Notes under the pieces: generated by a model
What the model saw: only the letters and a program-made list of their open reading frames with translations
The model's database searches: none
Told to the model about the DNA's origin: nothing
Program-made: the position numbers and the translations under genes
Part shown: in pieces, positions 1 to 19,465 of the stretch
Position numbering within the stretch: the stretch's first letter is position 1
Layout: each line of letters opens with the position of its first letter
Assembly (NCBI GenBank): GCA_012813795.1
Contig: GCA_012813795.1_4087.1
Reading direction: 5' to 3' (one strand)
DNA length: 64,000 nucleotides
Source of the DNA: a phage

Positions 1-176
1 ATATAACGTTGTGTCTTTGTTGTATTGAACTTTGTCAGGTCATTTAACAGTAAAGAGAGTACATGGGCTACATCGCGACCCCTAACATACATCGTGCGTT
101 CACTCATGACCTTTTCATAGCCACGAATGTTATCAAATTCAGATATACCCACGTATTCAATCACGTATCTGTTCAT
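1..176 (-). CDS. hypothetical protein (3' end cut by window edge)
   Basis: ATG at 176-174 overlaps stop of upstream ORF (ATGA coupling); frame stays open to position 1. Confidence 0.35.
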   Translation of the reverse strand, partial: MNRYVIEYVGISEFDNIRGYEKVMSERTMYVRGRDVAHVLSLLLNDLTKFNTTKTQRY

Positions 177-679
177 TTATCATCCACTTGTATGTCAAAG
201 GCTTTACAGAAATTATCTACTCTTTTACCAGGAACTGACATGTATATGTTATATGGCAATTCACATACCTTATTGGAAATTGCCAGTACTTTAGGAATAT
301 CAGGATCGTGTAGTTCAAAGTTGTATAGCAATGAACTTTGGAATACACCCTCTTCAGTACTGTAATCTACAATGAACAGTTCGTGTGATGATGGTATATC
401 ATATTCTACAATGTTTTTGTGATTCGGTCTATTATGAAAGTGAATTTCATATGTATCACGCACCGTTGGTTTAGATAGATAAACCGCAGATTCAAAAAGA
501 TCACCAATACCGAATGTAACATCACACAGCTTATCACCGTTTGTATCATACAAATAGAACATTGTACTATCAAATACTTTATCAGATACAATATTCATAG
601 TATTGTACGTACCATTGTAGCTCTCATTGAAGTTGATAAACTCTATGAACTTTACAAACTTATCAGTACTAAGATTCAC
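173..679 (-). CDS. EE-x-FFQ motif family protein (hypothetical)
   Basis: 168-aa ORF; C-terminal STEEGVFQSSLL matches the family motif. Confidence 0.5.
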   Translation of the reverse strand: MNLSTDKFVKFIEFINFNESYNGTYNTMNIVSDKVFDSTMFYLYDTNGDKLCDVTFGIGDLFESAVYLSKPTVRDTYEIHFHNRPNHKNIVEYDIPSSHELFIVDYSTEEGVFQSSLLYNFELHDPDIPKVLAISNKVCELPYNIYMSVPGKRVDNFCKAFDIQVDDK

Positions 680-879
680 TACTTCACCTCAATGACCTTA
701 AGGTTAACAAAGTCACCTTTGACCTTCATACATTTGTATTCGGTACGAGTTTCTTCACCAGCATCACGAGGCCAGTGTGTCGCAGAATAACACTGCTCAG
801 GTGTTTTATATACACCGTCACCGAATGTATGTGTGATTTCACCATTTGTTAGTACTACGGCTAGATATAAAGTAAACAT
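679..879 (-). CDS. hypothetical small protein
   Basis: 66-aa ORF in co-oriented array, coupled to neighbours. Confidence 0.35.
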   Translation of the reverse strand: MFTLYLAVVLTNGEITHTFGDGVYKTPEQCYSATHWPRDAGEETRTEYKCMKVKGDFVNLKVIEVK

Positions 880-1036
880 GTGTATTCCTCAAAAAAACTT
901 ATTAATGATAACTGCAAACAGTCCCAGTACTGCAATAATTACAGATACCCACATTACCGCATTCACTGTACCAGTTAGTTCTTTATCAAACTCCCTGCAC
1001 TTCTTGCGGTACTCTTCCCATTCTTTGTTGTTCACC

Positions 1037-1246
1037 TTATGCTCCCAATAAATCAGTTGCTTTCTTGAGAACAACGTCAATTGTTTCCAGTACTGCACCT
1101 TTGTGTTCAATTGATACAATATTATTATAAGTATCAAGGTCCAAGTATTCCATGTATTCAGTTTTGAATACACGAACATCAGTACTAGTGATTTTAAGAT
1201 CACAACCTTTATTCCAGATAACCTGCATCATTTCATTGGTAGTCAT
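1037..1246 (-). CDS. hypothetical protein
   Basis: 69-aa ORF; ATG overlaps upstream stop (TAATG). Confidence 0.4.
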   Translation of the reverse strand: MTTNEMMQVIWNKGCDLKITSTDVRVFKTEYMEYLDLDTYNNIVSIEHKGAVLETIDVVLKKATDLLGA

Positions 1247-1521
1247 TATTCAACCTTATCATAAACAAGTTTGTGAGTGCTTATTACTTTGTTGAGTTGC
1301 CCAGGACATTCATATACGTATAATCTCTCCTGACGTTTTTCCCAACCACCACAAATACGTCCTGCTTGTGTACATATTTCATATTCGTTAATAAAAGACT
1401 TACCTGTGAATGTACAATCATAACGAACTAAGTCTTTTGCACTAAACCTGCCGTAATCATTACATGCTGTAAGAAACATTGTACAGAATACAACAAACAC
1501 AGTCAATAGTTTTTTAATCAT
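1246..1521 (-). CDS. putative lipoprotein
   Basis: N-terminal signal peptide with lipobox FLTAC. Confidence 0.5.
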   Translation of the reverse strand: MIKKLLTVFVVFCTMFLTACNDYGRFSAKDLVRYDCTFTGKSFINEYEICTQAGRICGGWEKRQERLYVYECPGQLNKVISTHKLVYDKVE

Positions 1522-1886
1522 TTAAGATCTCCCCAACGGCAACCCTTCATATGATTCAAATTCACCTCAACTATTTCATGTGTGTCAGTGCACAATATCG
1601 ACAGTTTTTTTGTAAAATCACCTGGTGAACTTTCATATTTCACACAATAGCCCTCGATACGGAGAACCGAGTGGGTCCATGATTCCCACTCAATCCAAAT
1701 TTCATTTGGGTGATATACAATATCTTCGTTTAACTTGTGATATTCATCCAGTGGAAGCTGTGTAGTGATATCAATATATTTTACATTTCGACTGAGTTTT
1801 TCAAGCTGATATCGTGTATTAGCTAGATATTCTTCGTCATTCAAACGTTTTAAGATATTTGCCGAACGAGTAGTATCAAGACTCAT
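1518..1886 (-). CDS. hypothetical protein
   Basis: 122-aa ORF, 4-nt overlap with upstream gene. Confidence 0.5.
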   Translation of the reverse strand: MSLDTTRSANILKRLNDEEYLANTRYQLEKLSRNVKYIDITTQLPLDEYHKLNEDIVYHPNEIWIEWESWTHSVLRIEGYCVKYESSPGDFTKKLSILCTDTHEIVEVNLNHMKGCRWGDLK

Positions 1887-1888
1887 TG

Positions 1889-2134
1889 TTATTCTCCATG
1901 AACCACAGATGTATCCACGCGAACTTTACCACTCATATAAGACGTAGTAGTGTTTGCATTAGGACAGTACACAGTGTACAAAGATGCACCAGCACCGTCT
2001 TGTTGCATACGATAAATCTTACACCCTGCTTCTTTGAGTTCAGTTGGTAAAACAAACTCACTAGTTCGTTCTTTGGTTGAAGCATCACATGCAGTGAGTA
2101 GGAAAGCAATTAGTACTGCTACAATATATTTCAT
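1889..2134 (-). CDS. putative lipoprotein
   Basis: Signal peptide with lipobox LLTAC. Confidence 0.5.
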   Translation of the reverse strand: MKYIVAVLIAFLLTACDASTKERTSEFVLPTELKEAGCKIYRMQQDGAGASLYTVYCPNANTTTSYMSGKVRVDTSVVHGE

Positions 2135-2442
2135 TAACGAACCTCCACTTCTTGAGAAAGAGCATGAGTCAGTGCATTTGAATTCGAACCATTCATTTCA
2201 CGCTGACATACAAACATAATGGCATCTTGTACTGAACCTGCGATTTCATACTCACGACCTTCTGGATCAGTTACCAGATGTTCAACGATACAACCACCAC
2301 GCAGTACAGAAGCACCAGTACTTACACTAATCCTGTAACCTAAAAAATCAAACTGCATACATGCGTCAGTAGGTTTCATCCAATAACCGCTGTTTTGATT
2401 CAAATCGATGATTACAAAACCTTGAGTGTTAGTTTGAAACAT
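2134..2442 (-). CDS. hypothetical protein
   Basis: 102-aa ORF; N-terminus MFQTNT resembles ORF 3011..3211; early promoter upstream. Confidence 0.5.
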   Translation of the reverse strand: MFQTNTQGFVIIDLNQNSGYWMKPTDACMQFDFLGYRISVSTGASVLRGGCIVEHLVTDPEGREYEIAGSVQDAIMFVCQREMNGSNSNALTHALSQEVEVR

Positions 2443-2535
2443 AGTTAATTCCTCATTTAATTTAAAAGGGTGGAAACGCAGTGACGAGTACGATTATGCT
2501 GTCTTTCCTTTCACTGCATTCCCTTTGATATAAAC

Positions 2536-2564
2536 ATTATACTGCTATTATTCAGTACTGTCAA
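2536..2564 (-). promoter_or_regulatory. sigma70-type early promoter (TTGACA-N17-TATAAT)
   Basis: Minus strand reads TTGACAGTACTGAATAATAGCAGTATAAT followed by GTTTATATCAAAG. Confidence 0.6.
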
Positions 2565-2839
2565 TCGATATAAGTACCTTTTTTAACATCACAGACTTCT
2601 TCCATCCAATGTGGATTTTCGTTTTTATCAGTGAAGATTTGTTCTGCTTCTTCTTTTGTTTCAGCTAGGACGATACGGTCCCCATCATCCAAAACACGGA
2701 TACGATAAACTTTCAGTTCTTGTTTCTGCTCAAGGATATTACACAGTTCACGTGCTTTTTCTTCATCGCACTCCCCTTCATTAGCATAAAACCAGATTGC
2801 TTTTTTAATAAGGTCACGTTCTTCTTTGGTAAAAGACAT
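2561..2839 (-). CDS. hypothetical protein
   Basis: 92-aa acidic ORF downstream of promoter 2885..2912. Confidence 0.5.
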   Translation of the reverse strand: MSFTKEERDLIKKAIWFYANEGECDEEKARELCNILEQKQELKVYRIRVLDDGDRIVLAETKEEAEQIFTDKNENPHWMEEVCDVKKGTYID

Positions 2840-2884
2840 AATATTTCCTATTATTTGTTAAAGTGGGTGTCGTTTGATATAAAC

Positions 2885-2912
2885 ATTATACAGTACTGAT
2901 ATCTTCTGTCAA
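2885..2912 (-). promoter_or_regulatory. sigma70-type early promoter
   Basis: TTGACA-N16-TATAAT then GTTTATATCAAACG on minus strand. Confidence 0.55.
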
Positions 2913-3010
2913 GTATTAATCACCAAAAATCATCATATACCCAAACCAACAAACACAGATGACTAAAACTAACAATACCAACGATAATCTCTAAAGTCAC
3001 GTTTGCATCC

Positions 3011-3211
3011 TTAATCAATGATTTTATATTCACGATGACCATAGAAGCCAGCCTCAAGGATGTGATTACCATCAGCATCTTCCAAGTCCCAGCCACGGGA
3101 TGTTTCGGCAATAATAGTCATGATGTGACCTTTAGTGAAGGTTCCACTCATAGTAGATACGTCTTCAAGTAATTGAACCTGCTTACCAACATTTGTATTC
3201 GATTGAAACAT
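3011..3211 (-). CDS. hypothetical protein
   Basis: 66-aa ORF, N-terminus MFQSNT paralogous to 2134..2442. Confidence 0.4.
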   Translation of the reverse strand: MFQSNTNVGKQVQLLEDVSTMSGTFTKGHIMTIIAETSRGWDLEDADGNHILEAGFYGHREYKIID

Positions 3212-3299
3212 TTATTTTTCCTTTAAGGTTGGATATATGCCAGTGCACCAATACCGATAACAACTACAGTGAATACAACCAGAAATATATTAAGTTTCA

Positions 3300-3467
3300 T
3301 CATTGTTTAATCACCTCGATTACTTTATCGATCTTAGTTCCAATACTTTCAGTACTTTCAGTTTTAGATGTACAGTAATCTGGACGGGTGTCAGGAAACT
3401 TCTCAGTTACCCATGAATGTCCATAGATGCCTAAACCGATACCAACGATTAAGATAATGATTTGCAT
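3300..3467 (-). CDS. possible small membrane protein (55 aa)
   Basis: ATG with GAGGA RBS about 7 nt upstream; hydrophobic N-terminus MQIIILIVGIGLGIY; below ORF-track size cutoff. Confidence 0.3.
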   Translation of the reverse strand: MQIIILIVGIGLGIYGHSWVTEKFPDTRPDYCTSKTESTESIGTKIDKVIEVIKQ

Positions 3468-3481
3468 GATAGTTCCTCTAA

Positions 3482-4294
3482 TTAAATTACATAGGGTTTA
3501 TAGTAATGAATCTCATTTGCTATTGCAGTGAAAACTTTCTTATTAAATCTTTCACCATAATCACGAAGTGATTCACCTTCTACGCTTTCAATAAAGTAAT
3601 TATATACTGGTAGTCGTGCACTGTCAATACCTATAAACGATTTCATGTAAATTTGTACTAAACGATTCATACCTGAATTTAAACATTCAACATCAAAGTG
3701 CTTGATACCTTTGTCTAAGTGCTTGAATGCATTGATGATACCACGCTTGAAATCACGCTCCATAGTACTGAATAGATTCTCAGGAAACACTGTAATCGGA
3801 GACATGGATTTAAGAATGTATGTATCTTTTGCATTCTTGATGTACTCAATGAAGCAGTAGTTTACATTAGGCTCAATTGAACGGTCTGCATTATGATACC
3901 AGTACTTAAACTCGCTGTACTCTGCGAACTTATGCTGGCGTAAGGCATTACAATCCTCACACAGTGCAGTCATGTTCTCTTTATCATTACCACCCTGAAG
4001 ACAGTCAAGTACATTATGGTCTAACGTCATGCGTACAAGGCGTTTCCCTTTAAGTACATAAGGTCTGAATTTATAACGGTCTTTAGTACTGTGCTTATGT
4101 AAAGTGAATACTACATTGGATTCACCACAACAATCACATTTAAAGCCGTCACGAGACATTACATGAATGAGTTTGCGAGTATTAGGTCCAAACTCAGATT
4201 TAGTAATATTATCCACAATTTCTGATGGTTGGTAATATTTTGAATTCAGTCGAATCAATTCATCGATAGTACTCATTTTAGATTTCCTCTTCAC
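3482..4294 (-). CDS. HNH-family endonuclease (putative homing endonuclease)
   Basis: CxxC ... DHNVLDCLQGGNDKENMTALCEDCN resembles the HNH zinc-binding core. Confidence 0.6.
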   Translation of the reverse strand: MKRKSKMSTIDELIRLNSKYYQPSEIVDNITKSEFGPNTRKLIHVMSRDGFKCDCCGESNVVFTLHKHSTKDRYKFRPYVLKGKRLVRMTLDHNVLDCLQGGNDKENMTALCEDCNALRQHKFAEYSEFKYWYHNADRSIEPNVNYCFIEYIKNAKDTYILKSMSPITVFPENLFSTMERDFKRGIINAFKHLDKGIKHFDVECLNSGMNRLVQIYMKSFIGIDSARLPVYNYFIESVEGESLRDYGERFNKKVFTAIANEIHYYKPYVI

Positions 4295-4502
4295 TGCATT
4301 CGGTGATTACTTTTTTAACCTCTATAACTCTTACTAAATGATACCCGCACCTATGGTTGAAATTAAACATGTTTACTAATGCATCAGCTTCTGTTTTTGC
4401 CCTAAATTGGAGATTATATATGTGCATAGTTTCATCGAGTGAGGCTTCACCTTTGCTATTGAAAACAATTTTACAAACTTCAAACCTTACTCGATAAATC
4501 AT
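4278..4502 (-). CDS. hypothetical protein
   Basis: 74-aa ORF. Confidence 0.4.
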   Translation of the reverse strand: MIYRVRFEVCKIVFNSKGEASLDETMHIYNLQFRAKTEADALVNMFNFNHRCGYHLVRVIEVKKVITECSEEEI

Positions 4503-4708
4503 TGAGTTTGTCCTACAATAAATTTCGCTTTAATATCACTTTTGTAACACCACATTTGTTCTTCACTAACTGTCATCCAAGAATTTTTGTTTACTTGTTC
4601 GTATGTACTATCACGTACAGAAAAACATTGGTTTAATGAATTCATAGGGGTAATTTGTACACCGGATTGCATTGAAAGAGCAACAATTAAAAAGATTGTA
4701 GTATTCAT
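4499..4708 (-). CDS. hypothetical secreted or membrane protein
   Basis: 69-aa ORF with hydrophobic N-terminus. Confidence 0.4.
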   Translation of the reverse strand: MNTTIFLIVALSMQSGVQITPMNSLNQCFSVRDSTYEQVNKNSWMTVSEEQMWCYKSDIKAKFIVGQTQ

Positions 4709-5323
4709 TGAATGTTCCTTAATAGTTAGTCATCCATCTCTTCGAGATGTCTGTTCGCTTCTAATACTACGTATTCTACGCGAATGATTAATAACTGTCA
4801 AGGACTTTTAATATTGACGGGATTTGAGGAAGGGATTTTTCTTCCCCCCGCTGGGAGGGGAATTTGACGCTGATGGTATCAGAGCTATTGCATTGAAGAT
4901 TACTCTTAATGAGTACGAAAGCGGGTCATCCTGTTTCTCTCTACTTCAGTTTCATATGACGGTCTACACTTTTAAACATAGTGTATCTTCATTAAGTATC
5001 TATGCAATCAAATACTTAATGTGAGTACTCAAATTTTGGACGCAACTTTCCTGTACAAAATTTGATAACTCTCCCTTAGATAATTCGTAAGGTGTTATCC
5101 TTATATGTCTATCTAGGAACCACCAGCCATCCTAACGTGGTTCTTTATAGTGCCGCATTGCCGTGAGGGGTTCATAATATGCCCACATCTGACGGGTTTC
5201 TTCTGCACTTCGCACTGCTGGACTGCTCAACTGCCCTCTACATTTTCGAGTGGATCAGGTTCATGTCATCCATGCCAACAGAATTGTACAATATCATTGT
5301 ATCATGAACATCCATTTTGTCCC

Positions 5324-5352
5324 ATAAAAAAAGGGCTGACCTAAGTCAACCC
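5324..5352 (-). terminator. rho-independent terminator after sigma gene
   Basis: GGGUUGAC/GUCAGCCC hairpin (one G-U pair) followed by U7 on minus-strand RNA; A/T runs on both sides. Confidence 0.55.
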
Positions 5353-5359
5353 TTTTTCT

Positions 5360-6322
5360 TTAGAAATCTTCGTATTCGTACCCTTTTTCAAGTACTATTT
5401 TTTTAAGCTTTTGAATAGCTTCACTATATTTTCGGTGCACAGATGAACGGGACTTAACAATGTTTCCTTTATCATCAACATATCCATTATCAGAAATTTC
5501 ACGAAGGGTTTCTGCTTTGTAATCCCCAAGACCATGAACACGCATGATAATTTCTCGTTCTTTAGTACTCAATTCGTCAATGATTTCTGTGATTGCATAA
5601 CGTAATGGATTACAAATGCTATCAACATTAAGGTTATAATCACGAGCAGATGAACTCAGAATATCCCCAAGGGTTCCGTCTGAATCTGAACCCAGTTGTG
5701 CATCAAGAGTCGTATATGCATTCTGGTATAACAAACAGTTCTTAACGTGCTGAAGCTCGATACCAGTACTCTCAGAGATTAATTCTGGTGTTGGTCGCTT
5801 ACCGTGTTCACGTTGATATGATTCATTAAATCGACGTACTTGGATGTTATGAACGCTCATATAACGTGGTAAGTACACCATGTAATTTGCATCTGAACTT
5901 TCATTATACATAGTCATATAAACGGACGTTGTTGCATATGTAATGAATTTGACATTCTTACTAAGATCAAAGGTTTTAAGTGCTCGCATAAAACCTTCTA
6001 CGCCATATGCAATTTTATCTTCAAACGGAATATAACATGTACACTTTGAAGCAACGTCAACAATCATACCATAGTTGTAACGAAGTAATAGGTCAGTATT
6101 CTTTTTTACATTAATCCCAGCACGAATCTCTTCTATGATAGATTCATTAGTTACACCTGCTGGACGTTTAATACTGATATTACTTTTACTACGAACTTTA
6201 TGTGGAATATCATCTTCAATAACTTCTGATGGTTCAATTGCTTCCAATGGATTGACTTCTTCATTCGCAAAACATTCATCCAGTACTTCTTCGGAAATTG
6301 CGTTTAAGTCTAGTTTCTTCAC
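5360..6322 (-). CDS. sigma-70 family RNA polymerase sigma factor
   Basis: 320 aa; region-2-like segment and C-terminal region-4 HTH (LSTKEREIIMRVHGLGDYKAETLREISD...RSSVHRKYSEAIQKL). Confidence 0.7.
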   Translation of the reverse strand: MKKLDLNAISEEVLDECFANEEVNPLEAIEPSEVIEDDIPHKVRSKSNISIKRPAGVTNESIIEEIRAGINVKKNTDLLLRYNYGMIVDVASKCTCYIPFEDKIAYGVEGFMRALKTFDLSKNVKFITYATTSVYMTMYNESSDANYMVYLPRYMSVHNIQVRRFNESYQREHGKRPTPELISESTGIELQHVKNCLLYQNAYTTLDAQLGSDSDGTLGDILSSSARDYNLNVDSICNPLRYAITEIIDELSTKEREIIMRVHGLGDYKAETLREISDNGYVDDKGNIVKSRSSVHRKYSEAIQKLKKIVLEKGYEYEDF

Positions 6323-6343
6323 TTACTTCTCCTAATGAAAAAA

Positions 6344-6841
6344 TCAAAATTGGTATACATTAATATTGTCGTCAGTATATTCATCGTGGTTTTTTACCTC
6401 TTTGAAAGTACTGAATATTTTTTGAAGTAGTGTGTCTTGGTTCTCATGCACAGCAGCATCAACCATGTACTCTCCACCACTTCCCATGAAGAATACATAT
6501 TCCTCATGCATGAACTCAAGGTACTTAAAAAACTTCCCGTTCTTTGTTCCTAAGTGAATACAATAATCTTTGGACAACAAGACACAATGGCAGTTCTCTT
6601 TTCTACTGGGCAGTACTATATCACCATATATCAAATACATCAAGACTTTATTGATTTCATTCACTGAACCTGCTGCACTAAACAGACGATCATGAATGTA
6701 TAATGATTTTTGAGTAACTACACCATATTGTTTTTTTGGTTTTAACGGGAATAATCCGAGAAAGTACCTCTCTGTAGAGGTTGTTACTCTTGAATCAGTG
6801 AGCAATAATCCAACACGCTTGTCAACATATACTGTAGTCAT
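6344..6841 (-). CDS. possible HslV/proteasome-beta-like Ntn peptidase
   Basis: 165 aa; N-terminal MTTVYV (Thr after Met) and GSGGEY motif about 120 aa in, similar in spacing to HslV TTIVSV ... GSGGPYA. Confidence 0.4.
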   Translation of the reverse strand: MTTVYVDKRVGLLLTDSRVTTSTERYFLGLFPLKPKKQYGVVTQKSLYIHDRLFSAAGSVNEINKVLMYLIYGDIVLPSRKENCHCVLLSKDYCIHLGTKNGKFFKYLEFMHEEYVFFMGSGGEYMVDAAVHENQDTLLQKIFSTFKEVKNHDEYTDDNINVYQF

Positions 6842-6842
6842 T

Positions 6843-7268
6843 CTACACCTTATCTAAGAATGCGGAATATATATCAATTTCTCTTCCTTTCAATACCTTA
6901 TCAAATGGGAAGGGATCTTTACTTCCAGTTAATATACCAAGTTTTGTGAAAAAATACAAGGCAATGAATTCAGTTATTTTGATGTTTTTCTTACTCTTAA
7001 CCAATTCTGCATAAGCAGAATTATAATCAAATTTTGTAGATGAACCATCAAATCCAAAATAGTGAATGTTGTAATTTTTTGAAAAGTTACTAACTGTCAT
7101 TCTTTCACATATCAAATCAATGGCTACTTTGGACCTACAATGCTTATTGAGTAAATCATAATTACAATTATTCAATGCCTCGTATATATCAAAAGACTCT
7201 TGAGCCAGTGTATGTACTTTAGGCTTAATTAGTTTACTTAGTAAGTACCTTATCTTTTTCAGAATCAT
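6843..7268 (-). CDS. hypothetical protein
   Basis: 141-aa ORF. Confidence 0.5.
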   Translation of the reverse strand: MILKKIRYLLSKLIKPKVHTLAQESFDIYEALNNCNYDLLNKHCRSKVAIDLICERMTVSNFSKNYNIHYFGFDGSSTKFDYNSAYAELVKSKKNIKITEFIALYFFTKLGILTGSKDPFPFDKVLKGREIDIYSAFLDKV

Positions 7269-7701
7269 AATAGTACTGCATCTCCGAAAGTAACATTACC
7301 TTATCAATATCAGGGAATGAATCAATAAGTAATGCTTTGATTTCATCCTTTAGCTCTTTGGCTTTTACAGACCATCCTTTGTAATAAGCTTGGAGGATGG
7401 GATCTTTCTTATGCATAGTATCTAATGCATTAACAGCGTAATCCACATGAAATGCAAGTACACCACATAGTTCTTCAATGTACTTCATCTTCATGTTATG
7501 AATATCGCGTTTAGCAGCGTTTGCAAGCACTGTGAACGCAGAATGCATATCACTAAGAGTATGTACTTCAAGTTTATAAAGGTCTTCACAAATGGCTACA
7601 ACGCGTTTTTCTGCCTTGGCTTGCTTAGAGTCTGCTTGGAAAAACAATTCAGACGGTGGATAGACCTTAGTTTTTTCTACCCATTGAACTAATTTATTCA
7701 C
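7234..7701 (-). CDS. hypothetical protein
   Basis: 155-aa ORF. Confidence 0.5.
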   Translation of the reverse strand: MNKLVQWVEKTKVYPPSELFFQADSKQAKAEKRVVAICEDLYKLEVHTLSDMHSAFTVLANAAKRDIHNMKMKYIEELCGVLAFHVDYAVNALDTMHKKDPILQAYYKGWSVKAKELKDEIKALLIDSFPDIDKVMLLSEMQYYYDSEKDKVLTK

Positions 7702-7973
7702 AGTACACCCTCTTCAAAAGATTCAGAAATGATCAGAGCATCATCGTAGTCGTCAGCAACAGAACGTACTACATCTAAATTAGTTTTACCTTGAACACTC
7801 TTAACATCGTTCATGAGATAATTAAGATCTACTTTAGTAACTTTTTCAGAATCGAATACACAAAAAGTAAGTTCAGTATCAGGGCAAATGTTTTTAAGAT
7901 TATTAGAAATAACTTTTTTAAAATCAAAAGACGGAGAAGCAACCAGGTTTACTGCTACTAGAATAGAGTTCAT
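7698..7973 (-). CDS. hypothetical protein
   Basis: 91-aa ORF downstream of promoter 8014..8042. Confidence 0.45.
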   Translation of the reverse strand: MNSILVAVNLVASPSFDFKKVISNNLKNICPDTELTFCVFDSEKVTKVDLNYLMNDVKSVQGKTNLDVVRSVADDYDDALIISESFEEGVL

Positions 7974-8013
7974 TGTGTTTTTCCTTTTTGGTTTTCAATT
8001 AAAGTAGGAGTAC

Positions 8014-8042
8014 ATTGTACTCCTATATTTCAGTACTGTCAA
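8014..8042 (-). promoter_or_regulatory. sigma70-type early promoter
   Basis: TTGACAGTACTGAAATATAGGAGTACAAT on minus strand (17-bp spacer). Confidence 0.5.
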
Positions 8043-8046
8043 GTAC

Positions 8047-8298
8047 TTAGATACCTAAAACTGCATTTAGTTCTTTGCGTTTGTTAAAAGAATCTGATTC
8101 AATCTTACTTTTCTTATTGAACATTGATTCGATATCTTTGTAGATACCTTCGATGCTTTTAGTAACTACCCATTCTGATTCTTGTAACATACCTTGAAGT
8201 CTAGCGTATTCAACCTTAATAGTGTCACGTAGTTCTTGACATTGGACTTCATTTTTCTGTAAAGCTTCAGTTAATGATTTCACCACATCGAGATTCAT
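8047..8298 (-). CDS. hypothetical protein
   Basis: 83-aa ORF, helical/coiled-coil-like. Confidence 0.45.
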   Translation of the reverse strand: MNLDVVKSLTEALQKNEVQCQELRDTIKVEYARLQGMLQESEWVVTKSIEGIYKDIESMFNKKSKIESDSFNKRKELNAVLGI

Positions 8299-8352
8299 AT
8301 GTGTCCCTCCTTTGTTTTGATAAAATAATTATATCCCTTAACACATTTTATG

Positions 8353-8778
8353 TCAAGATGTTTTTGTTCCTTCCCTTGCCTCTCGTTCAAGAAACTCTTG
8401 GATTATTGAATTTTGTCGTGAACGAACAACTATTGTCATTAACAAAAGTATTGATGATGCAACACCAGGAATGATCTCACCCATTTGAATGAAATAAACT
8501 GTCAGTAATGCAAATGGTACAATAGTTACTGAACTGATCGTTTTCCACCCAAAGTCATTCGCAAAGTTGTTTTTATCTTTCTCGTCATTATCCATTGCAA
8601 TTGTTAGTAACGTAATAAGAGCAGCCAAACCCGCACACAGGCAGTATCCAACAATAGCAATAGTAAACCACGCTGGATTAAGTACTGTACCAATCGAATA
8701 CTTTGTGCATAATACGTCAATTAGACATAAAATACCAAATGAAAAGGGAGCGAGTAATAGTTTATAGTATGTTCTCAT
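8353..8778 (-). CDS. hypothetical membrane protein
   Basis: 141 aa with several hydrophobic segments. Confidence 0.5.
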   Translation of the reverse strand: MRTYYKLLLAPFSFGILCLIDVLCTKYSIGTVLNPAWFTIAIVGYCLCAGLAALITLLTIAMDNDEKDKNNFANDFGWKTISSVTIVPFALLTVYFIQMGEIIPGVASSILLLMTIVVRSRQNSIIQEFLEREAREGTKTS

Positions 8779-9233
8779 TATAAATCTACCTTTGTTGTTG
8801 GAATTGACTTCCTACGTATCTCTTCCGCAGTTTGCATGTCTTCGTACTCCTGTGCAAACTTGTTTTGAACCGTTCGCATACGTTCAAGGACAATAAACAA
8901 AATCATTGCCATGCCCATATATGAATAGTATTCATAGTTCAAAGCATAAATGATACATGGAATGAACGGGAGTGTTAGATACCACCCATAGTGTTTAAAT
9001 TCAAAAACTACTGCATAGAAACGTCTTGCATCGTCTTCATCACTAAAGATCATAAAAGCACTAGAAAAAAAGACACCAAGAAAAAATAAAAGTGAAAACA
9101 CTGAAACTACTGTTTGGTACTTGTTATCATCTGTGACTTGAAAGAAGTCCAGTACTGGTAATGAAAACCAAGACAAAATACCAAGAAGATAAATGTATTT
9201 TACGGATTTGATAGAAATCATTTTAAACCCCAT
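8778..9233 (-). CDS. hypothetical membrane protein
   Basis: 151 aa with several hydrophobic segments; abuts downstream gene. Confidence 0.5.
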   Translation of the reverse strand: MGFKMISIKSVKYIYLLGILSWFSLPVLDFFQVTDDNKYQTVVSVFSLLFFLGVFFSSAFMIFSDEDDARRFYAVVFEFKHYGWYLTLPFIPCIIYALNYEYYSYMGMAMILFIVLERMRTVQNKFAQEYEDMQTAEEIRRKSIPTTKVDL

Positions 9234-9676
9234 GCTTGTTTGATTAAGTTAATTTGACTTTGATTTACAACTTCTTTTTTAGCTGCCGCTTTTTCTACCT
9301 TATCCATCACATAAACTTGTGCATCTTTATCCAACATAAACTTACCATCAATCAAGTTACCAAATACTTTAGAATTTCGTGCTGGGTAAGGACCAATCTC
9401 ATCAATGGTTCGTACTTGTTTATCTACAATGGTCGCTTTAATGAATCCAGTTTCCAGTACTGTTGTCATTACTGTCATTTCAATTGCAACAGGTGAATCT
9501 TCCCAGTAAGCCACCCACTTGGTAAAGCCACGATCTTTATCAGATTTTGTCGCTTTTAATTTAATAGAAGCATTGAAAATGTACTGTTTGAAGTTTCCTT
9601 CAACCACTTCACTGATACTCAAGTACCCTTCACGTTGCTCGGTATTGCGTTTAAATTGGGTAGCTAATACTGTCAT
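9218..9676 (-). CDS. hypothetical protein
   Basis: 152-aa ORF. Confidence 0.5.
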   Translation of the reverse strand: MTVLATQFKRNTEQREGYLSISEVVEGNFKQYIFNASIKLKATKSDKDRGFTKWVAYWEDSPVAIEMTVMTTVLETGFIKATIVDKQVRTIDEIGPYPARNSKVFGNLIDGKFMLDKDAQVYVMDKVEKAAAKKEVVNQSQINLIKQAWGLK

Positions 9677-9740
9677 GGTTGGTTCCTCATTAGATTATAA
9701 ATTAGTGTTGTGTTTCATTGGTAGTATCTTATCACTTCAC

Positions 9741-10205
9741 CTATAGCCTGTCAAGAACATCTGTAGTTTTATTTTGTAGTGCTTTTAGGATCAAACGAAT
9801 ATAGTACGGTGGTAAAACGAATCTTTCCATTGAGTTATATGAAAGATACATATCACTAAGTTTTAGTTCAGAACTGCTGTTACCTGGTTCTATAAAATGG
9901 ATCACCCCAGGATTTTTCATCACAACTTTGTATCCATTAACATTGTTGATAGCATTTCGACAAACCAGTTCAATGTTTGCTAAATCACTAATACTATAGT
10001 TTAGATTATATGATGAATGATATGAAGACACAACTAAAAATTCTTTGGGTAACAAATATGTCCAAAATAATGATTTAAAAAAAGCAAGATTTCCCTCAAA
10101 CTTAGATATAGATTTACTATATGCAATATGTTCAACATCATCAATGATAGAAAAAATCAATTGATATACAATAACAAATAGACTAATACATATCAGTGCT
10201 GTCAT
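9741..10205 (-). CDS. hypothetical protein with N-terminal TM segment
   Basis: 154-aa ORF. Confidence 0.5.
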   Translation of the reverse strand: MTALICISLFVIVYQLIFSIIDDVEHIAYSKSISKFEGNLAFFKSLFWTYLLPKEFLVVSSYHSSYNLNYSISDLANIELVCRNAINNVNGYKVVMKNPGVIHFIEPGNSSSELKLSDMYLSYNSMERFVLPPYYIRLILKALQNKTTDVLDRL

Positions 10206-10528
10206 TCATCAAACCCTCGTATGTAATTAAAAACTTCTACGCATTCTAATGTTTTTTCATCATCATTCATGTCATAGCCTTGAAGGAAATCTTCACGATC
10301 AACTCTCTTTGCCATCAAGTCAGTTTCTGAAATCATGGAATTGTAAAATGAAAACATATCCTTATAGTACTGCTTATTGTGTTGTTCATCCTTTACCTTA
10401 GCATAACCAGCACAATATGATGGGGATTTAACATCCTTCCATCGCACTTTATCAGCATAAACTGGATTGATGAAGCACGTAGTTAAGAATAGTACTGCTA
10501 CTATAGCCATGAAGCTCTTTAGCATCAT
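10202..10528 (-). CDS. hypothetical secreted protein
   Basis: 108 aa with signal-peptide-like N-terminus. Confidence 0.5.
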   Translation of the reverse strand: MMLKSFMAIVAVLFLTTCFINPVYADKVRWKDVKSPSYCAGYAKVKDEQHNKQYYKDMFSFYNSMISETDLMAKRVDREDFLQGYDMNDDEKTLECVEVFNYIRGFDE

Positions 10529-10767
10529 TATACCTCTTCGACAATAATATAGATTTCAACATCTTCACTGGAACTAAGATTTACTCTGTACTCAATATCA
10601 AGGATCTCGTACTGGGTATCATATGTATTTGTGATTGTCAGTACTGAACCAATAGATGGAAGTACTGGGAAATTCAATACATGTTGTACTGAACTAAATG
10701 AAAACTCTTTCTCACCGTTATATTGATTAGTAGTGTATTCATTTACTTCAATGTTACATTTAATCAT
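10528..10767 (-). CDS. hypothetical protein
   Basis: 79-aa ORF. Confidence 0.45.
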   Translation of the reverse strand: MIKCNIEVNEYTTNQYNGEKEFSFSSVQHVLNFPVLPSIGSVLTITNTYDTQYEILDIEYRVNLSSSEDVEIYIIVEEV

Positions 10768-11429
10768 AGTGGTAGCTCCTGTAGTGGTTTAAGAATACTC
10801 ATAACTGGATGGTTCTCAATTAATGGACGACCTGGTACACCTGTTAATACTACTGGAATAGAACTAATGTCTTTTACGTAATTGAATCCCTCAAACGTAA
10901 ATTCTTGTTTTTTCTCATTATACAAGACCCACAGAATAACATCAGCTTTTTTCTGAATGTTTTTCAATTGTCTAGTACTGACACATGGACCAAAGTCTTT
11001 CCATGATTTATACTTAATACCTTTTACTTCTATACGCAACCCATTTACTTTAATGTCACATTCACCATCACGTCCATCACATTGGAATGCTGGATCAATG
11101 TTTAACTTAATACCAGTACTGGCTTCAATTTCAGAGAACAATACAAACGATGCGTGTTCACAAACCATTCCAACAAAATGACTATGAGCGTGATTAAACC
11201 CATAAGGTGATTTGTTTTCAGGTGCAAGAACTTGATATCGCTCAGACTTTTCGATTGCCTTCGCCATGAAAGAATCTGCTTCATCAGAGTATAGTTTCAC
11301 AGTCATCTTGCCATTTTTAACAATTAAACGATTTTCTAATACATTCATAAAATACTCCTTTTCACTATTAATGTACATTATACTCAAAAATACAGGTCTG
11401 TCAAGGCCGATTTTCACCCTCATTATCAT
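10764..11429 (-). CDS. hypothetical protein
   Basis: 221-aa ORF; true start may be an internal Met. Confidence 0.5.
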   Translation of the reverse strand: MIMRVKIGLDRPVFLSIMYINSEKEYFMNVLENRLIVKNGKMTVKLYSDEADSFMAKAIEKSERYQVLAPENKSPYGFNHAHSHFVGMVCEHASFVLFSEIEASTGIKLNIDPAFQCDGRDGECDIKVNGLRIEVKGIKYKSWKDFGPCVSTRQLKNIQKKADVILWVLYNEKKQEFTFEGFNYVKDISSIPVVLTGVPGRPLIENHPVMSILKPLQELPL

Positions 11430-11469
11430 AAATATTTTATAAGCATTTCAACAATGAGGGGTTTGTTTT

Positions 11470-12627
11470 ATGTCTAGAACCATAGCTGATACCGGTGAAT
11501 ACAAGTTCGGTGAATGTGGTTATATCGTGGATGGTGCTTTACTAATCGATGGAACCAAATTAAAAAATATAAGAATTTACAGGCAGCGTAGTTATAAACT
11601 ATTTGATATTATAGATCCTGTAACAAACAAAATATATAGACGCGTACAAATTACTTCTTATGATAAGGTAGGAAATTTACTTAACTATAAAAAATCCGAT
11701 GATGAATTATTGGATGTTATTGCAAAGAATACTTTCTTTGTTCGTGGATACACTAATCATTTGAAACCTACAGATCCAACAGGGTTTGTAACTAAATTCC
11801 AATTACACAAAACGATATTTGGAAACTCCGATGTTACTTTTGATATGTACACACCAACTTGTTCAATTATTGATCGTGATATAGATAATATTTTAGTTAA
11901 TCCAGTTCATGTTGGGGATACTGAAATATCGGGTAAACTGTTCAATGCTGGACAAACCATCAACACAACAGGAATGACAATTACTGTAAAATTTTCAGAT
12001 GGGTCCGAGTATTCAACGAGTACAATAGTCAATGATGAATTCATTATAACAGTACCGGAAATTATGTCAACCGGAACTGCAACTATAACTCTTACGTCTG
12101 ATTTTTATAATACAAAAAGCGTTGATTTTAATATATTAGATGTTGGTGAGGATGACGGCTTAACCACTACTGTATCAGTAACTACATTCAGTACTGGGCC
12201 TGGTGATGTGTATAGTGCAAGAATCCCTGCTGATGTACATGGGCGTGGTAATAACTTAGCTATTCAGGTATATGATAATCATAATAATTTGGTATCTGCT
12301 GGCATTAATGTTAGCTCTACTGGTGATATTACAGTAACAATATATGATAATACACCTATAAAACTAAGTATATTGGGTAGTACATTACAAACATCTCCAT
12401 ATGTACAAAATGTCTCTTCTTCTGAATGGACACGCAATGGTGAAATGTATGAAATTAATATATCCAGTACTGGACACTTAAAAGAATTTGTTTTTGTTCA
12501 AGTATATGATAATAACAATGATGCAGTTCAATGTGAAATTCAGCTTGATGATGATGAGAATGTTACAATTACTTCTGTCGAAGCATTTGATGCAAAGATT
12601 GTAGTGTTTGGTTATAACAAACAATAA
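11470..12627 (+). CDS. hypothetical beta-rich repeat protein (possible virion or surface protein)
   Basis: 385 aa, the only substantial plus-strand gene; GAGGGG RBS; Thr/Ser-rich repeated beta-like segments; hairpin terminator right after stop. Confidence 0.55.
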   Translation: MSRTIADTGEYKFGECGYIVDGALLIDGTKLKNIRIYRQRSYKLFDIIDPVTNKIYRRVQITSYDKVGNLLNYKKSDDELLDVIAKNTFFVRGYTNHLKPTDPTGFVTKFQLHKTIFGNSDVTFDMYTPTCSIIDRDIDNILVNPVHVGDTEISGKLFNAGQTINTTGMTITVKFSDGSEYSTSTIVNDEFIITVPEIMSTGTATITLTSDFYNTKSVDFNILDVGEDDGLTTTVSVTTFSTGPGDVYSARIPADVHGRGNNLAIQVYDNHNNLVSAGINVSSTGDITVTIYDNTPIKLSILGSTLQTSPYVQNVSSSEWTRNGEMYEINISSTGHLKEFVFVQVYDNNNDAVQCEIQLDDDENVTITSVEAFDAKIVVFGYNKQ

Positions 12628-12656
12628 AAAAAAGCCTCCATATGGAGGCTTTTTCG
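12627..12656. terminator. bidirectional rho-independent terminator
   Basis: A8-GCCTCC-ATAT-GGAGGC-T5 between convergent genes. Confidence 0.7.
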
Positions 12657-12662
12657 TTCTCA

Positions 12663-13505
12663 TTACATAAAGTAATTGCGAATCACATATTCTAATGTTT
12701 TATCTTGGTGCTGCACTGCAACGGAATAAATTAGATTTTTAAATCCATCAATAGCAGCTTTCGATTCTTCTTCACCAAAATTCTTACTGATACTTTCGAA
12801 CATATCTTGTGCACGTTCAGAACTAACAACACTGTCAACGAATGCTGAAATTTCAGCACGCAACTGACGATCAAGCATATCACCAATCAGAATATCATCT
12901 GACTGTGAATCATCGTCGGTTTGTGCTGTGGTATCAGAATATCCAAAGATATCTTCAGATAGACCAAATTTCTTTTTAGCACCAGTAAATGCGGATTTCA
13001 CTTTAGATTTTACATCTTCTTTTTTGGAAGGTTGTTCTTGGGATTCAGGTTCTTCAGTTTCATATTCTTTTGTGAACATATGAGACAGCACTTGGTCAAG
13101 ATTATTAATCATACCATTTAACTTAGATTCTGCTGCGGCCCCCACGACTTTAAATGCTTCTTCATAAAGCTTATCTTCAGCCTTAGATTTTGCAGTACTA
13201 ACAGTTTCAGTGATTTTATCAGTACAATTTTTAAGAAGTTCAACAATTTCAGAAGATTTGCCATTTAGGATCTTATTGACCAACATATCCAACCCATCAG
13301 TTGGTTTGGATTTGTTTACTGGTTCACCATTTAATACCATTGCTAGTTCTTTTAGTGCAGCGTTAGATTCAAGACTAGAATCGAATTCTACCGATAACGT
13401 TGCCCCATTTGTCAACTCAATGACGAGATTATTGATAGACACATAAGAATGAGAATAAAGATCTTTATTGAATGATACAGTTTTGAATACGATAATGTTT
13501 GACAT
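12663..13505 (-). CDS. hypothetical acidic protein
   Basis: Start set at ATG 13505 (MSNIIVF) with GGAG RBS, not the upstream track start. Confidence 0.5.
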   Translation of the reverse strand: MSNIIVFKTVSFNKDLYSHSYVSINNLVIELTNGATLSVEFDSSLESNAALKELAMVLNGEPVNKSKPTDGLDMLVNKILNGKSSEIVELLKNCTDKITETVSTAKSKAEDKLYEEAFKVVGAAAESKLNGMINNLDQVLSHMFTKEYETEEPESQEQPSKKEDVKSKVKSAFTGAKKKFGLSEDIFGYSDTTAQTDDDSQSDDILIGDMLDRQLRAEISAFVDSVVSSERAQDMFESISKNFGEEESKAAIDGFKNLIYSVAVQHQDKTLEYVIRNYFM

Positions 13506-13515
13506 TTGAACTCCA

Positions 13516-13905
13516 TTAATTCCCAGACGCGGGAAAGTTTTTAAACATATAGTGACATTGTACCAGATTTTCGAAAGTAAGTCCAAAATCTAGAGTAACC
13601 ATCAGAGTTTGATATAAGTAATGACCAATCTCATTAGTTTCCGCATCTTTAAGATAGATTCCGAATTCAGTACAGCAAAATTGAACAACTTCATTATAAT
13701 CGATAAATTGTGATATTACAAGTACTTGGTCATATGAATTTGCATCAAAGCGAACCATGAACATTTCATTTGTTACAGGGTGGATAATAATACCACCCCT
13801 TGATATGACCTTTTCGTAATTATCACTCAAAAAATTAATTGTTGAGCTTAAATCCATATTATGCCTCGTTATAGAGTTTTCGTCCCGTGAGATGCTCATC
13901 TGCAC
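13516..13905 (-). CDS. hypothetical protein
   Basis: 129-aa ORF; C-terminal region weakly resembles the EE-x-FFQ family tail. Confidence 0.45.
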   Translation of the reverse strand: MQMSISRDENSITRHNMDLSSTINFLSDNYEKVISRGGIIIHPVTNEMFMVRFDANSYDQVLVISQFIDYNEVVQFCCTEFGIYLKDAETNEIGHYLYQTLMVTLDFGLTFENLVQCHYMFKNFPASGN

Positions 13906-14071
13906 AGAACTTCATTAAAAATGCTTTTTGTGAAAATCTCTGAAGCATTGAAACAGTTTCTTTTTTCATGTAAGCAATCTTATTGTCTACATCTAGCATT
14001 ATATCATGCTTTACGTTTAATTCCTGAATTGTTTTGTAAATTTCAAAATTTCGTTCTTTCATAGCCACCAA
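13859..14071 (-). CDS. hypothetical protein
   Basis: 70-aa ORF. Confidence 0.4.
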   Translation of the reverse strand: MVAMKERNFEIYKTIQELNVKHDIMLDVDNKIAYMKKETVSMLQRFSQKAFLMKFCADEHLTGRKLYNEA

Positions 14072-14372
14072 GATCCTCTAGTTCCCAAACAAGTTCTTTT
14101 GCTTCATCAATGTTATGGATGATTTGATAATGTCCAGAACTTGATGTTAGACGACTACCGTTTTGAGTAATGCAATAACCCCATGTTTTTGACTCATTAT
14201 GCATATCTCTCTGAAGTTTATATGGAGATTGTGGTTTCTTTTCTGCTATGTTTTCAGTATATAGGTCTTTTTCAATTTCCATACCACGAATGTGTGCATT
14301 CTTTTCAATACAACGGCAGATGATTATAGTAGCACAACATATTACAGTGATAATTATAGCATACATTTTCAA
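14043..14372 (-). CDS. hypothetical membrane protein
   Basis: 109 aa with hydrophobic N-terminal segment. Confidence 0.45.
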   Translation of the reverse strand: MKMYAIIITVICCATIIICRCIEKNAHIRGMEIEKDLYTENIAEKKPQSPYKLQRDMHNESKTWGYCITQNGSRLTSSSGHYQIIHNIDEAKELVWELEDLGGYERTKF

Positions 14373-14797
14373 TAACCTCTACTCTTACTAGTATGTTCAT
14401 TTATTGCATCTACCAGGTCATAACCCTGATAGTTAATACCATCAATTATAACTTTGTACTTATTACGTACCTTTGTGCCATCAGTTTTGGTCCAAATTGT
14501 GTTGTCTGGTGTAATAGATACAGTGTGATTTAAAATGAAATCAAACATCTGTTCCTTTGATAGTACTGTGACATTTTCAGTAATCATATCTACATTGATA
14601 CATTCACGAGTATGCTCAACACCTTCAAAAATGGCAACACCTTCGGTTTCTTTCAGTTTCTGTGCTTGAGCTTTAGCCGTTCCCATATCATCGGCATGAA
14701 CTGTTTCTGTACTGTATTCTACATTTAGTACGTTACCAGTATCTACGTCTTTCCATGTGTCACGAAAATGAACTTTAATCTTTGCTGTATTAGACAC
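14369..14797 (-). CDS. hypothetical protein
   Basis: 142-aa ORF. Confidence 0.5.
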   Translation of the reverse strand: MSNTAKIKVHFRDTWKDVDTGNVLNVEYSTETVHADDMGTAKAQAQKLKETEGVAIFEGVEHTRECINVDMITENVTVLSKEQMFDFILNHTVSITPDNTIWTKTDGTKVRNKYKVIIDGINYQGYDLVDAINEHTSKSRGY

Positions 14798-15769: not shown

Positions 15770-15790
15770 ATCAGACAGTTATGTGGTCGT

Positions 15791-17521: not shown

Positions 17522-17533
17522 GGTGTTCTCCTT

Positions 17534-17570
17534 AAAAAGAAAAAAGGCCGATTCAATTTGAATCAGCCTT
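17534..17570 (-). terminator. rho-independent terminator
   Basis: 13-bp stem AAGGCUGAUUCAA/UUGAAUCGGCCUU then U6CU5 on minus-strand RNA. Confidence 0.6.
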
Positions 17571-17571
17571 A

Positions 17572-17600
17572 AGTATAACATTTGTGGCATTGAAAGTCAA
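17572..17600 (-). promoter_or_regulatory. sigma70-type promoter overlapping terminator
   Basis: TTGACT-N17-TATACT on minus strand; predicted start site falls inside the terminator stem. Confidence 0.45.

Positions 17601-18688: not shown

Positions 18689-18696
<8 letters not shown>
18334..18696 (-). CDS. EE-x-FFQ motif family protein
   Basis: C-terminal TEESLFQYSMINDIGDLTLEEI. Confidence 0.55.

Positions 18697-19465
<769 letters not shown>

Follow-up and report, generated by a model that had tools for sequence, protein, structure and literature searches.

An AGTACT palindrome repeated throughout the genomes of RaK2-like jumbo phages and set in register with strong early promoters

The question raised by positions 2536 to 2912 of a phage DNA is what the word GTACTG does inside strong early promoters. 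The DNA (NCBI GenBank assembly GCA_012813795.1, contig GCA_012813795.1_4087.1) was analysed as one stretch of 64,000 nucleotides, called the window below, and two promoters, at 2536 and 2885, lie within the named positions. A preliminary description had proposed at least ten promoters of the form TTGACA/T-N16-17-TATAAT on the minus strand, most of them with GTACTG in the spacer as a possible binding site of a phage or host regulator. GTACTG was found to be half of a palindrome, CAGTACTG, i.e. (C)AGTACT(G). The palindrome is iterated clade-wide, and it is real, as seen in its excess, its frame independence, its partial conservation, its distribution among phages and its register with the promoters.

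The window, with a G+C content of 34.5%, is closest to Escherichia phage A4 (ON286972, 355.5 kb, genus Asteriusvirus; 98% identity), with PBECO4, 121Q and phAPEC6 at about 84% identity, and from these identities its source is assigned to a RaK2-like (Asteriusvirus) jumbo coliphage. The counterpart in A4 spans roughly 262-326 kb, in reversed orientation. The minus strand carries 113 of the 118 open reading frames (ORFs) of the window, which comprise small ORFs with no known function, a gene for a sigma-70-family sigma factor and a cytosine methyltransferase, together with tRNA genes; both subunits of topoisomerase II and clamp-loader genes lie at the far end.

The counts of AGTACT were compared with those in shuffled sequences. 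In the window no other hexamers come near the over-representation of GTACTG/CAGTAC and AGTACT, with 146 copies of AGTACT against 15.6 in shuffles (about 16-22 expected overall) and 144 copies of CAGTACTG with at most one mismatch against 20. The element is recorded as follows.

1..64000: 146 copies of AGTACT all over the window, 34 of them in the form CAGTACTG.

In the whole A4 genome, 922 copies of AGTACT were counted against 121 expected (7.6x) and 224 copies of CAGTACTG against 3.8 expected (59x), and all 10-kb bins were enriched (11-78 AGTACT against 3.4 expected), the densest part being a 30-kb block in which tiny ORFs have promoters of their own. At the head of this block (4.1-6.1 kb of A4, outside the window), a 2-kb non-coding stretch is full of TCAGTACTGA, with about 20 copies of (T)CAGTACTG(A) and short direct repeats of the GGCTAGA/GGCTGGA type; it might serve as an origin, as an end-proximal signal or as a platform for binding. 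The flanks of the 146 window sites are symmetric: C is preferred to T and T to A on the 5' side, with G rare, and G to T and T to A on the 3' side, with C rare. Most of the sites (122 of 146, about 84%) lie fully inside ORFs, in all three frames. Non-coding DNA was the denser, with 4.6 sites per kb against 2.4 per kb in coding DNA. Along genes the distribution was flat, but start codons were marked by a dip and the positions right behind stop codons by a small peak.

For the coding test, synonymous codons were shuffled within each gene. Coding AGTACT in A4 amounted to 764 copies against 224 in the shuffles, with 378, 131 and 255 copies in the three frames against 118, 40 and 66, respectively (3.2-3.9x in each), and coding CAGTACTG to 181 against 18.7. 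The corresponding count in the window was 123 against 36.6 (maximum 52 in 200 shuffles), with 50, 30 and 43 copies against 16.6, 7.4 and 12.6, respectively. Ser-Thr pairs were written AGT-ACT in 52% of cases against 14.7% expected from codon usage, and Val-Leu pairs were written GTA-CTG in 22.5% against 3.3%. Because the enrichment survives within-gene synonymous shuffles in all three frames, a protein-level or codon-usage cause is out; the pressure acts on DNA, not on protein, and is realised by synonymous codon-pair choice.

For the conservation of individual sites, the window was aligned with PBECO4 (31 kb, 79% identity), and 44 of 74 AGTACT were intact (P = 8e-7), compared with a background of 31.6% for all hexamers and 31.7% for composition-matched hexamers. 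Between A4 and RaK2 (35 kb of late genes, 72% identity), 24 of 83 were intact against 14.5% (P = 5e-4). The comparison of the window with A4 gave 91.1% against 90.4%, their 98% identity leaving no statistical power.

The distribution of AGTACT was determined in samples of related and other phage genomes, as follows (observed and expected counts).

PBECO4, 50 kb: 123 observed, 17 expected.
RaK2 late region, 50 kb: 119 observed, 17 expected.
RaK2 early region, 11 kb: 72 observed, 3.8 expected.
GAP32 early region, 50 kb: 253 observed, 17 expected.
CBB, 25 kb: 74 observed, 8.5 expected.
Xanthomonas phage XbC2, 25 kb: 81 observed, 8.1 expected.
Serratia phage BF, 21 kb: 71 observed, 7.2 expected.
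PA5oct, 25 kb: 1 observed, 8.5 expected.
Atu_ph07, 25 kb: 1 observed, 8.4 expected.
T4, 30 kb: 8 observed, 10.3 expected.

AGTACT is thus enriched 7-19x across four genera, Asteriusvirus, Alcyoneusvirus, Mimasvirus and Eneladusvirus (samples of PBECO4, RaK2, GAP32, CBB, XbC2 and BF), with no excess in the samples of PA5oct, Atu_ph07 and T4. It is the top palindromic hexamer in every enriched sample and the top hexamer in the genomes of six relatives. The enriched clade coincides with the phages that have a homologue of the sigma-70-family factor of the window; this co-distribution is a lead only, since many other genes probably share it. A scan of IMG/VR for the boxed promoter pattern gave four matches, of which RaK2 was the only one from this clade.

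Other palindromes and the host stand in contrast. Neither the window (56.7 expected) nor the whole A4 genome (342 expected) contains any GCGC, and the word is likewise missing from the samples of CBB, XbC2 and BF; its frequency is normal in those of T4, PA5oct and Atu_ph07. A4 lacks 22 of the 64 palindromic hexamers, and AGTACT is the only one strongly in excess. In a 50-kb sample of E. coli K-12, AGTACT occurred at 0.06 per kb against 2.3 in the window (about 40x), and GCGC at 6.8 per kb against none. Two further biases of word usage were recorded. In the sense-strand coding sequences of A4, compared with synonymous shuffles, the asymmetric hexamers TATTTA (0.13 of expectation), TAAATA (0.27), CTCAGA/ACTCAG/TCTCAG (0.13-0.19) and GACATC (0.13) were strongly avoided; the avoidance of TATTTA/TAAATA is possibly one of a late-promoter-like TATAAATA. 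The Chi sequence of E. coli, GCTGGTGG, has 21 copies on one strand of A4 and 2 on the other (1.1 expected per strand); the two copies in the window (5120-5127 and 52182-52189) are both on the gene (minus) strand, which is not significant alone.

The promoters were counted against dinucleotide shuffles. TTGACW-N16-17-TATAAT gave 13 exact matches in the window, 13 of 13 on the minus strand, which is the strand of the genes, against a mean of 0.17 and a maximum of 2 in the shuffles, and the promoter series proposed earlier is borne out in this respect. Only the near-perfect sites stand out from chance, weak matches (9-10 of 12 positions) numbering 37 against 39.6 in shuffles (9 kb). Seven of the nine coordinates given earlier for the series (2536, 2885, 21074, 22536, 25754, 40221 and 46616) are exact; the other two, 8014 and 34371, have TACAAT, and site 34443, named for its start region, has TTGACG in place of TTGACA/T. 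A GTTT(A/G)T directly 3' of TATAAT was found at all five places where it had been noted (2536, 2885, 22536, 34443 and 46616). The two promoters at the locus and their surroundings are as follows.

2536..2564, minus strand: promoter TTGACA-N17-TATAAT followed by GTTTAT; its AGTACT box at 2554-2559 (CAGTACTG at 2553-2560) overlaps the last base of the -35 hexamer.
2472..2523, minus strand: leader hairpin just downstream of the 2536 promoter, a 13-base-pair (bp) stem and then ACCCUUUU (U-run).
2134-2442, minus strand: ORF served by the 2536 promoter, 102 amino acids.
2885..2912, minus strand: promoter TTGACA-N16-TATAAT followed by GTTTAT; its box at 2892-2897 (CAGTACTG at 2891-2898) abuts the -10 hexamer, cAGTACTG|TATAAT.
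2561..2839, minus strand: ORFan served by the 2885 promoter and situated between it and the 2536 promoter, 92 amino acids, with no Pfam match and with PHROG 24324 (unknown function).

The 2536 promoter is conserved in A4 and PBECO4. Its leader hairpin has a folding energy of -24 kcal/mol (z = -3.8), which none of 200 shuffles equalled, and no stem-loop was seen at the 2885 promoter. The "sigma-70 family" label that the A4 record gives to the ORF at 2561-2839 was not reproduced.

The assignment to early sigma-70 promoters also agrees with the sequence: the sites have a near-perfect consensus, occur on the gene strand only and lie between genes, ahead of small ORFs and tRNA genes, in the part of the window that holds the sigma-factor gene. 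Several of the exact promoters sit directly upstream of ORFs or tRNA genes; 40221 overlaps a short ORF call. The sites are well supported by their sequence as predicted strong sigma-70-type early promoters. As promoters they are ordinary, and their type has already been described for this phage group: RpoD-like promoters have been predicted in CBB and GAP32 amid short hypothetical genes beside the phage sigma-factor gene (PMC5259590), and the database record of GAP32 carries promoter features of the same type. T4 early promoters are likewise near-consensus for 'UP/-35/TGn/-10' (PMC2988021). The promoters of the window resemble both sets in the near-perfect TTGACA-N16-18-TATAAT, the A-rich upstream sequence and the clustering among small ORFs of unknown function with a phage sigma-factor gene. 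The published descriptions of the CBB, GAP32 and T4 promoters mention no AGTACT/GTACTG element.

That most of the promoters carry GTACTG in the spacer was an overstatement; five of the 13 exact sites do (2536, 2885, 12043, 22536 and 25754). This number is still well above chance: the frequency of the word in the window itself, already inflated, predicts 0.24 (about 20x; Poisson P = 6e-6), and the non-coding rate predicts 0.35. GTACTG is also found in the spacer of 8014, and 21074 has the variant GTATTG; there is none in the spacers of 40221, 46616, 34371, 3599, 8328, 11377, 19497 and 45408.

The position of the box was then recorded in a set of 123 promoter-like sites of A4 with at most one mismatch. 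The box starts 7 (14 cases) or 8 (7 cases) bases before TATAAT in 21 of 123, against about 1 expected at the non-coding density, and smaller peaks occur at 17-18 and 27-30 bases, where the box overlaps the 3' or 5' edge of the -35 hexamer, respectively. The box of the 2885 promoter occupies the modal position of A4. The same registers recur in the window, where the box abuts the -10 hexamer (2885, 22536), overlaps or abuts the -35 (2536, 24116), brackets the -35 (8014), fills the spacer twice (25754) or is paired at a distance of 20-25 bp (21682, 22244). The remaining promoter sites are as follows.

3599..3627, minus strand: exact promoter, consensus match with no box.
8014..8047, minus strand: promoter TTGACA-N17-TACAAT, the -35 bracketed by boxes at 8032-8037 and 8042-8047, 10 bp apart (AGTACTTGACAGTACTG); a 9-bp stem-loop overlaps the -10 hexamer.
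8328..8356, minus strand: exact promoter, consensus match with no box.
11377..11404, minus strand: exact promoter, consensus match with no box.
12043..12070, minus strand: exact promoter with GGTACTG (one-mismatch box) one base upstream of the -10.
19497..19539, minus strand: exact promoter with a box at 19534-19539, 9 bases upstream of the -35.
21074..21114, minus strand: exact promoter directly upstream of a tRNA-Ser gene (20972-21063), with a decayed spacer box CAGTATTG and an intact AGTACT at 21109-21114, 6 bases upstream of the -35.
21682..21707, minus strand: AGTAC|TTGACT-N9-cAGTACTG, with a distance of 20 bp between the two boxes and a degraded -10, TGCAAT; a paralogue of the 22536 promoter.
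22244..22282, minus strand: promoter of the extended -10 type, AGTACTGA|TATAAT, with boxes at 22252-22257 and 22277-22282, 25 bp apart.
22536..22563, minus strand: exact promoter TTGACT-N16-TATAAT followed by GTTTGT, cAGTACTG abutting the -10 (box 22543-22548); identical in A4 and PBECO4.
23261..23298, minus strand: promoter TGGACA-N16-TATAAT, with a box at 23261-23266 between the -10 and the 5' end of a tRNA-Ser gene (23171-23260).
24116..24127, minus strand: TTGACT followed immediately by AGTACTG, the box abutting the -35, with a weak -10 downstream.
25754..25782, minus strand: exact promoter; two boxes 10 bp apart (25762-25767 and 25772-25777) take up its 17-nucleotide spacer, TTGAC-AGTACT-atcc-AGTACT-Ga-TATAAT.
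34371-34399, minus strand: second promoter TTGACA-N17-TACAAT, beside the 34443 promoter.
34443..34471, minus strand: promoter TTGACG-N17-TATAAT followed by GTTTGT, a consensus variant with no box.
40221..40249, minus strand: exact match with no box, overlapping the short ORF 40085-40261 (rough gene calls).
45408..45436, minus strand: exact promoter with no box; a stem-loop atgtgccc...gggcacat spans the -10.
46616..46644, minus strand: exact promoter followed by GTTTAT, with no box; a stem-loop gtgttgctc...gagcaacac spans the -10.

The register is shared by other genera. The early promoters of RaK2 are stereotyped as AGTAC|TTGACA-N9-cAGTACTG|TATAAT-GTATTACATCAAAGGGGA, and an early promoter of GAP32 reads AGTACT|TTGACA-N10-AGTACTt|TATAAT with the boxes 22 bp apart; the sigma factors of the genera concerned share only 35-42% identity. 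In early regions the density of AGTACT is 6-8 per kb. Boxes 10 or 20-22 bp apart lie on the same face of the helix, inside the footprint of RNA polymerase. In T4, GTAC occurred near the spacer in 0 of 13 early promoters, so the box is no general requirement of strong sigma-70 promoters.

Several side observations concern the neighbourhood of these promoters. The two tRNA-Ser genes (20972-21063 and 23171-23260, minus strand) lie directly behind early promoters, and one of them was given by ARAGORN the unusual putative anticodon ACT. Such a tRNA would read AGT, a Ser codon that the AGT-ACT motif inflates and that makes up 33% of the Ser codons. The stretches 20696-21716, 22061-22521 and 3737-4256 of the window, which are not present in or not aligned with A4, adjoin boxed promoters and an HNH endonuclease gene, as would fit ORFans that are gained and lost between promoters in the manner of cassettes. 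The 650 bp or so (4709-5359) that follow the sigma-factor gene hold no sizeable gene-strand ORF and are unannotated in A4 and PBECO4 too; this gap contains a Chi site and a promoter-like TTGACA-N17-TAGAAT at 4773-4801.

As the best explanation of the AGTACT box, at a rough probability of 45%, we propose that a phage-encoded, two-fold symmetric protein reads AGTACT on double-stranded DNA, occludes early promoters and acts genome-wide. Bound at early promoters, the protein would compete with sigma-70 RNA polymerase, by which early transcription may be shut off or timed, and the approximately 900 other sites would give it a hold on the phage DNA as a whole, which may be architectural, protective or a mark of 'self'. 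The dyad-symmetric box overlaps the -35, the -10 or the spacer in a fixed register, as a repressor operator would, but it is not confined to regulatory regions, 122 of 146 copies lying in ORFs. With about 84% of copies intragenic and the enrichment clade-wide, the reading as an operator of one regulator is too narrow. What remains of the earlier idea of a regulator site is a palindrome in fixed register, often doubled and kept in RaK2 and GAP32; it is not specific to promoters, and a host regulator is unlikely. The hosts of the enriched phages range from Enterobacterales to Xanthomonas, which makes a phage-encoded reader more likely than a host protein.

A number of results weigh against such a reader. 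AGTACT is kept at only about 2x background; from one genus to another the density holds but the majority of sites are replaced, which fits selection on density as well as on individual sites. Across the genome, any helical-phase excess in the spacing between sites is weak at most, at 10-12 and 20-22 bp. Only about 20-40% of the consensus promoters are boxed, which means that promoter function does not require the box. Pfam and PHROG scans of the window ORFs returned no DNA-binding candidate other than the sigma factor, and the Pfam scan of 113 window ORFs gave no helix-turn-helix or ribbon-helix-helix protein among the best 25 of 40 families. The ORFs behind the boxed promoters look like acidic ORFans. 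Finally, compact palindromes of 6 bp are no less typical of the targets of methyltransferases or nucleases than of repressor operators.

Candidates for the reader were considered individually. Neither in the window nor in A4 could a homologue be detected of the HTH_37 protein of CBB and XbC2, encoded beside the sigma-factor gene, or of the PrlF-like protein of CBB. A LexA box is rejected because TACTGTATA fits it at one half-site only, the CAG of the other half being absent. The SlmA site of E. coli, GTGAGTACTCAC, shares the central AGTACT, and in each half-site SlmA depends on G1, T2, purine 3, A4 and G5 (PMC3020112). In the phage sites, C takes position 3 in 74 of 146 cases and G, the least used base there, in 8 of 146. 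G1 and purine 3, both of them required, are missing or avoided, and the trait reaches a Xanthomonas phage, so that the box does not have the properties of an SlmA-binding site.

A wider form of the same idea, which we consider doubtful, is that AGTACT is an identity tag of the clade. The symmetric phage reader would silence the boxed promoters and mark, organise or protect the phage DNA, and the purged GCGC and approximately 22 palindromic hexamers would be the opposite, host-only signal, giving a two-sided self/host discrimination independent of modification.

The main alternative, judged unlikely and of the same order as the identity tag, is that AGTACT is the target of a phage DNA methyltransferase and that the mark does the work, the candidate being a small Dam-family N6-adenine enzyme of A4 and GAP32, encoded outside the window. 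The mark could protect against ScaI/RsaI-type restriction, and the methylation state (full in parental DNA, as opposed to newly replicated DNA) could tune early promoters. A strict 6-bp palindromic core with flanks that vary across genera is typical of type II methyltransferase specificity, the gene for the adenine enzyme is present in both phages, and in a clade that otherwise purges palindromes a retained and amplified one would need protection. Dam-family adenine methyltransferases usually target GATC, however, and methylation alone gives no reason for the 7- to 60-fold multiplication of the sites or for their register with the promoter hexamers. A precedent in favour is HIP1 of cyanobacteria, which two reports place within methyltransferase target sites (PMC6604393, PMC6105098). 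The methyltransferase of the window itself (32273-34171, minus strand) is a C5-cytosine enzyme that carries an intein (Hint and LAGLIDADG) at the catalytic Pro-Cys motif, the orthologue in PBECO4 having 286 amino acids and no intein. After removal of the intein, the spliced protein is closest, end to end, to the catalytic domains of mammalian DNMT3A/3B, hence of the CpG type, and CpG methylation has been reported for RaK2 (PMC3622015); AGTACT contains no CpG, and this enzyme is an unlikely reader of the box.

The possibility that AGTACT is the preferred site of action of a two-fold symmetric phage enzyme, either the T4-type topoisomerase II of the window or a nicking or cutting endonuclease, with the promoter link secondary, is considered improbable. 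The dyad symmetry and the even spread over genes agree with it, as does the presence of both topoisomerase subunits in the window, and in E. coli the REP elements, palindromes repeated many times over, serve as sites for gyrase. T4, with a homologous topoisomerase, nevertheless has no excess of AGTACT, and the register with the -10 and -35 hexamers, the two-box promoters and the early density of 6-8 per kb are left unexplained.

Still a little less probable is a neutral origin, in which a biased repair or mutation process of the very-short-patch kind drives sequences towards AGTACT, the element has no function and the spacers are merely unconstrained. Repair drive has been proposed for HIP1, and a non-coding density twice the coding one, together with a density that is kept between genera when most positions are not, is as such a process would have it. 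Strong depletion is, however, seen in none of the 18 words that differ from AGTACT by one mismatch (0.61-1.45 of expectation; the transition neighbours AGTATT and AATACT at 0.86 and 0.73, respectively), and this argues against a simple drive turning one neighbour into the motif. Nor would repair place the box about 20x above the non-coding rate at two exact positions before TATAAT or conserve a two-box promoter architecture in three genera, and no Vsr-like gene is noted in the A4 annotation. Least probable is that GTACTG simply suits the sigma-70 RNA polymerase of the host best, as spacer or extended -10, and has been copied among promoter cassettes that are visibly paralogous: a box 8 bases before TATAAT does supply the TGn of an extended -10 (25754, 22244), but the commonest register, 7 bases, puts the TG one base off, the same word abuts the -35 on either side too, 84% of the copies are intragenic, and the early promoters of T4 manage without the word.

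The AGTACT palindrome was compared with known repeated elements. The HIP1 palindrome of cyanobacteria, GCGATCGC, occurs about once per few hundred to few thousand bases. AGTACT resembles it as a short palindrome in coding and non-coding DNA, in any frame and conserved above expectation, and has the many-fold genome-wide excess and the frame-independent coding occurrence of a HIP-type element; it differs in its sequence, in its carrier, a virus of proteobacteria, and in the additional fixed promoter register. The sites of Chi/RecBCD and KOPS/FtsK, uptake sequences and SlmA/Noc sites are similar in having many copies over genes, a density that holds with turnover and a contrast between self and foreign DNA, but Chi, KOPS and uptake sequences are asymmetric and biased in orientation, whereas AGTACT is symmetric. 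Functional analogies for a genome-wide binder that would shut early promoters are offered by p6 of phi29 and TF1 of SPO1, which coat the viral genome and repress early promoters and read no defined hexamer, and by the operators of Phd/YefM antitoxins, which are paired, compact GTAC-centred hexamer palindromes overlapping a promoter. No Phd/YefM, ribbon-helix-helix or HU-like protein was found among the best 25 of 40 Pfam families for the window ORFs.

Promoter-early stem-loop (PeSL) cassettes have been described for the T4-type phages RB49 and phi1 (PMC2839356). The window is similar in its strong sigma-70 promoters upstream of ORFans and in stable stem-loops on or near the -35 and -10 (8014, 45408, 46616 and the hairpin after 2536), so that both defining parts of a PeSL are found at these four sites, and A4 has PeSL-like GGGG...CCCC stems after the start site and promoters that overlap terminators. 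PeSLs are defined by promoter and stem-loop, not by a short palindromic box. A further property of PeSL cassettes is to mediate the shuffling or recombination of flanked ORFans (mini-circles); indels that separate the window from A4, at 20696-21716 and 22061-22521, lie near boxed promoters. A full-text literature search of incomplete coverage, in which the GAP32 paper did not turn up, gave no earlier description of the motif in these phages. The clade-wide iterated palindrome is apparently undescribed so far, the closest being HIP1-type palindromes and signature words read by proteins, with an operator-like use at promoters.

The finding means that a clade of phages with genomes of 320-385 kb re-codes its genes for one hexamer palindrome, to 7-19x chance, and purges most other palindromes that contain G+C. 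This points to a reader or writer of DNA that acts genome-wide and is wired into the early promoters. In early promoters the box offers a defined target for mutation, and the AGTACT count is a simple signature of the clade in metagenomes. The distortion of codon-pair usage by AGTACT matters for the analysis or recoding of these genomes. The identity of the reader would bear on the timing of early transcription in giant phages without a nucleus-like shell, and on how giant phages distinguish or organise their own DNA.

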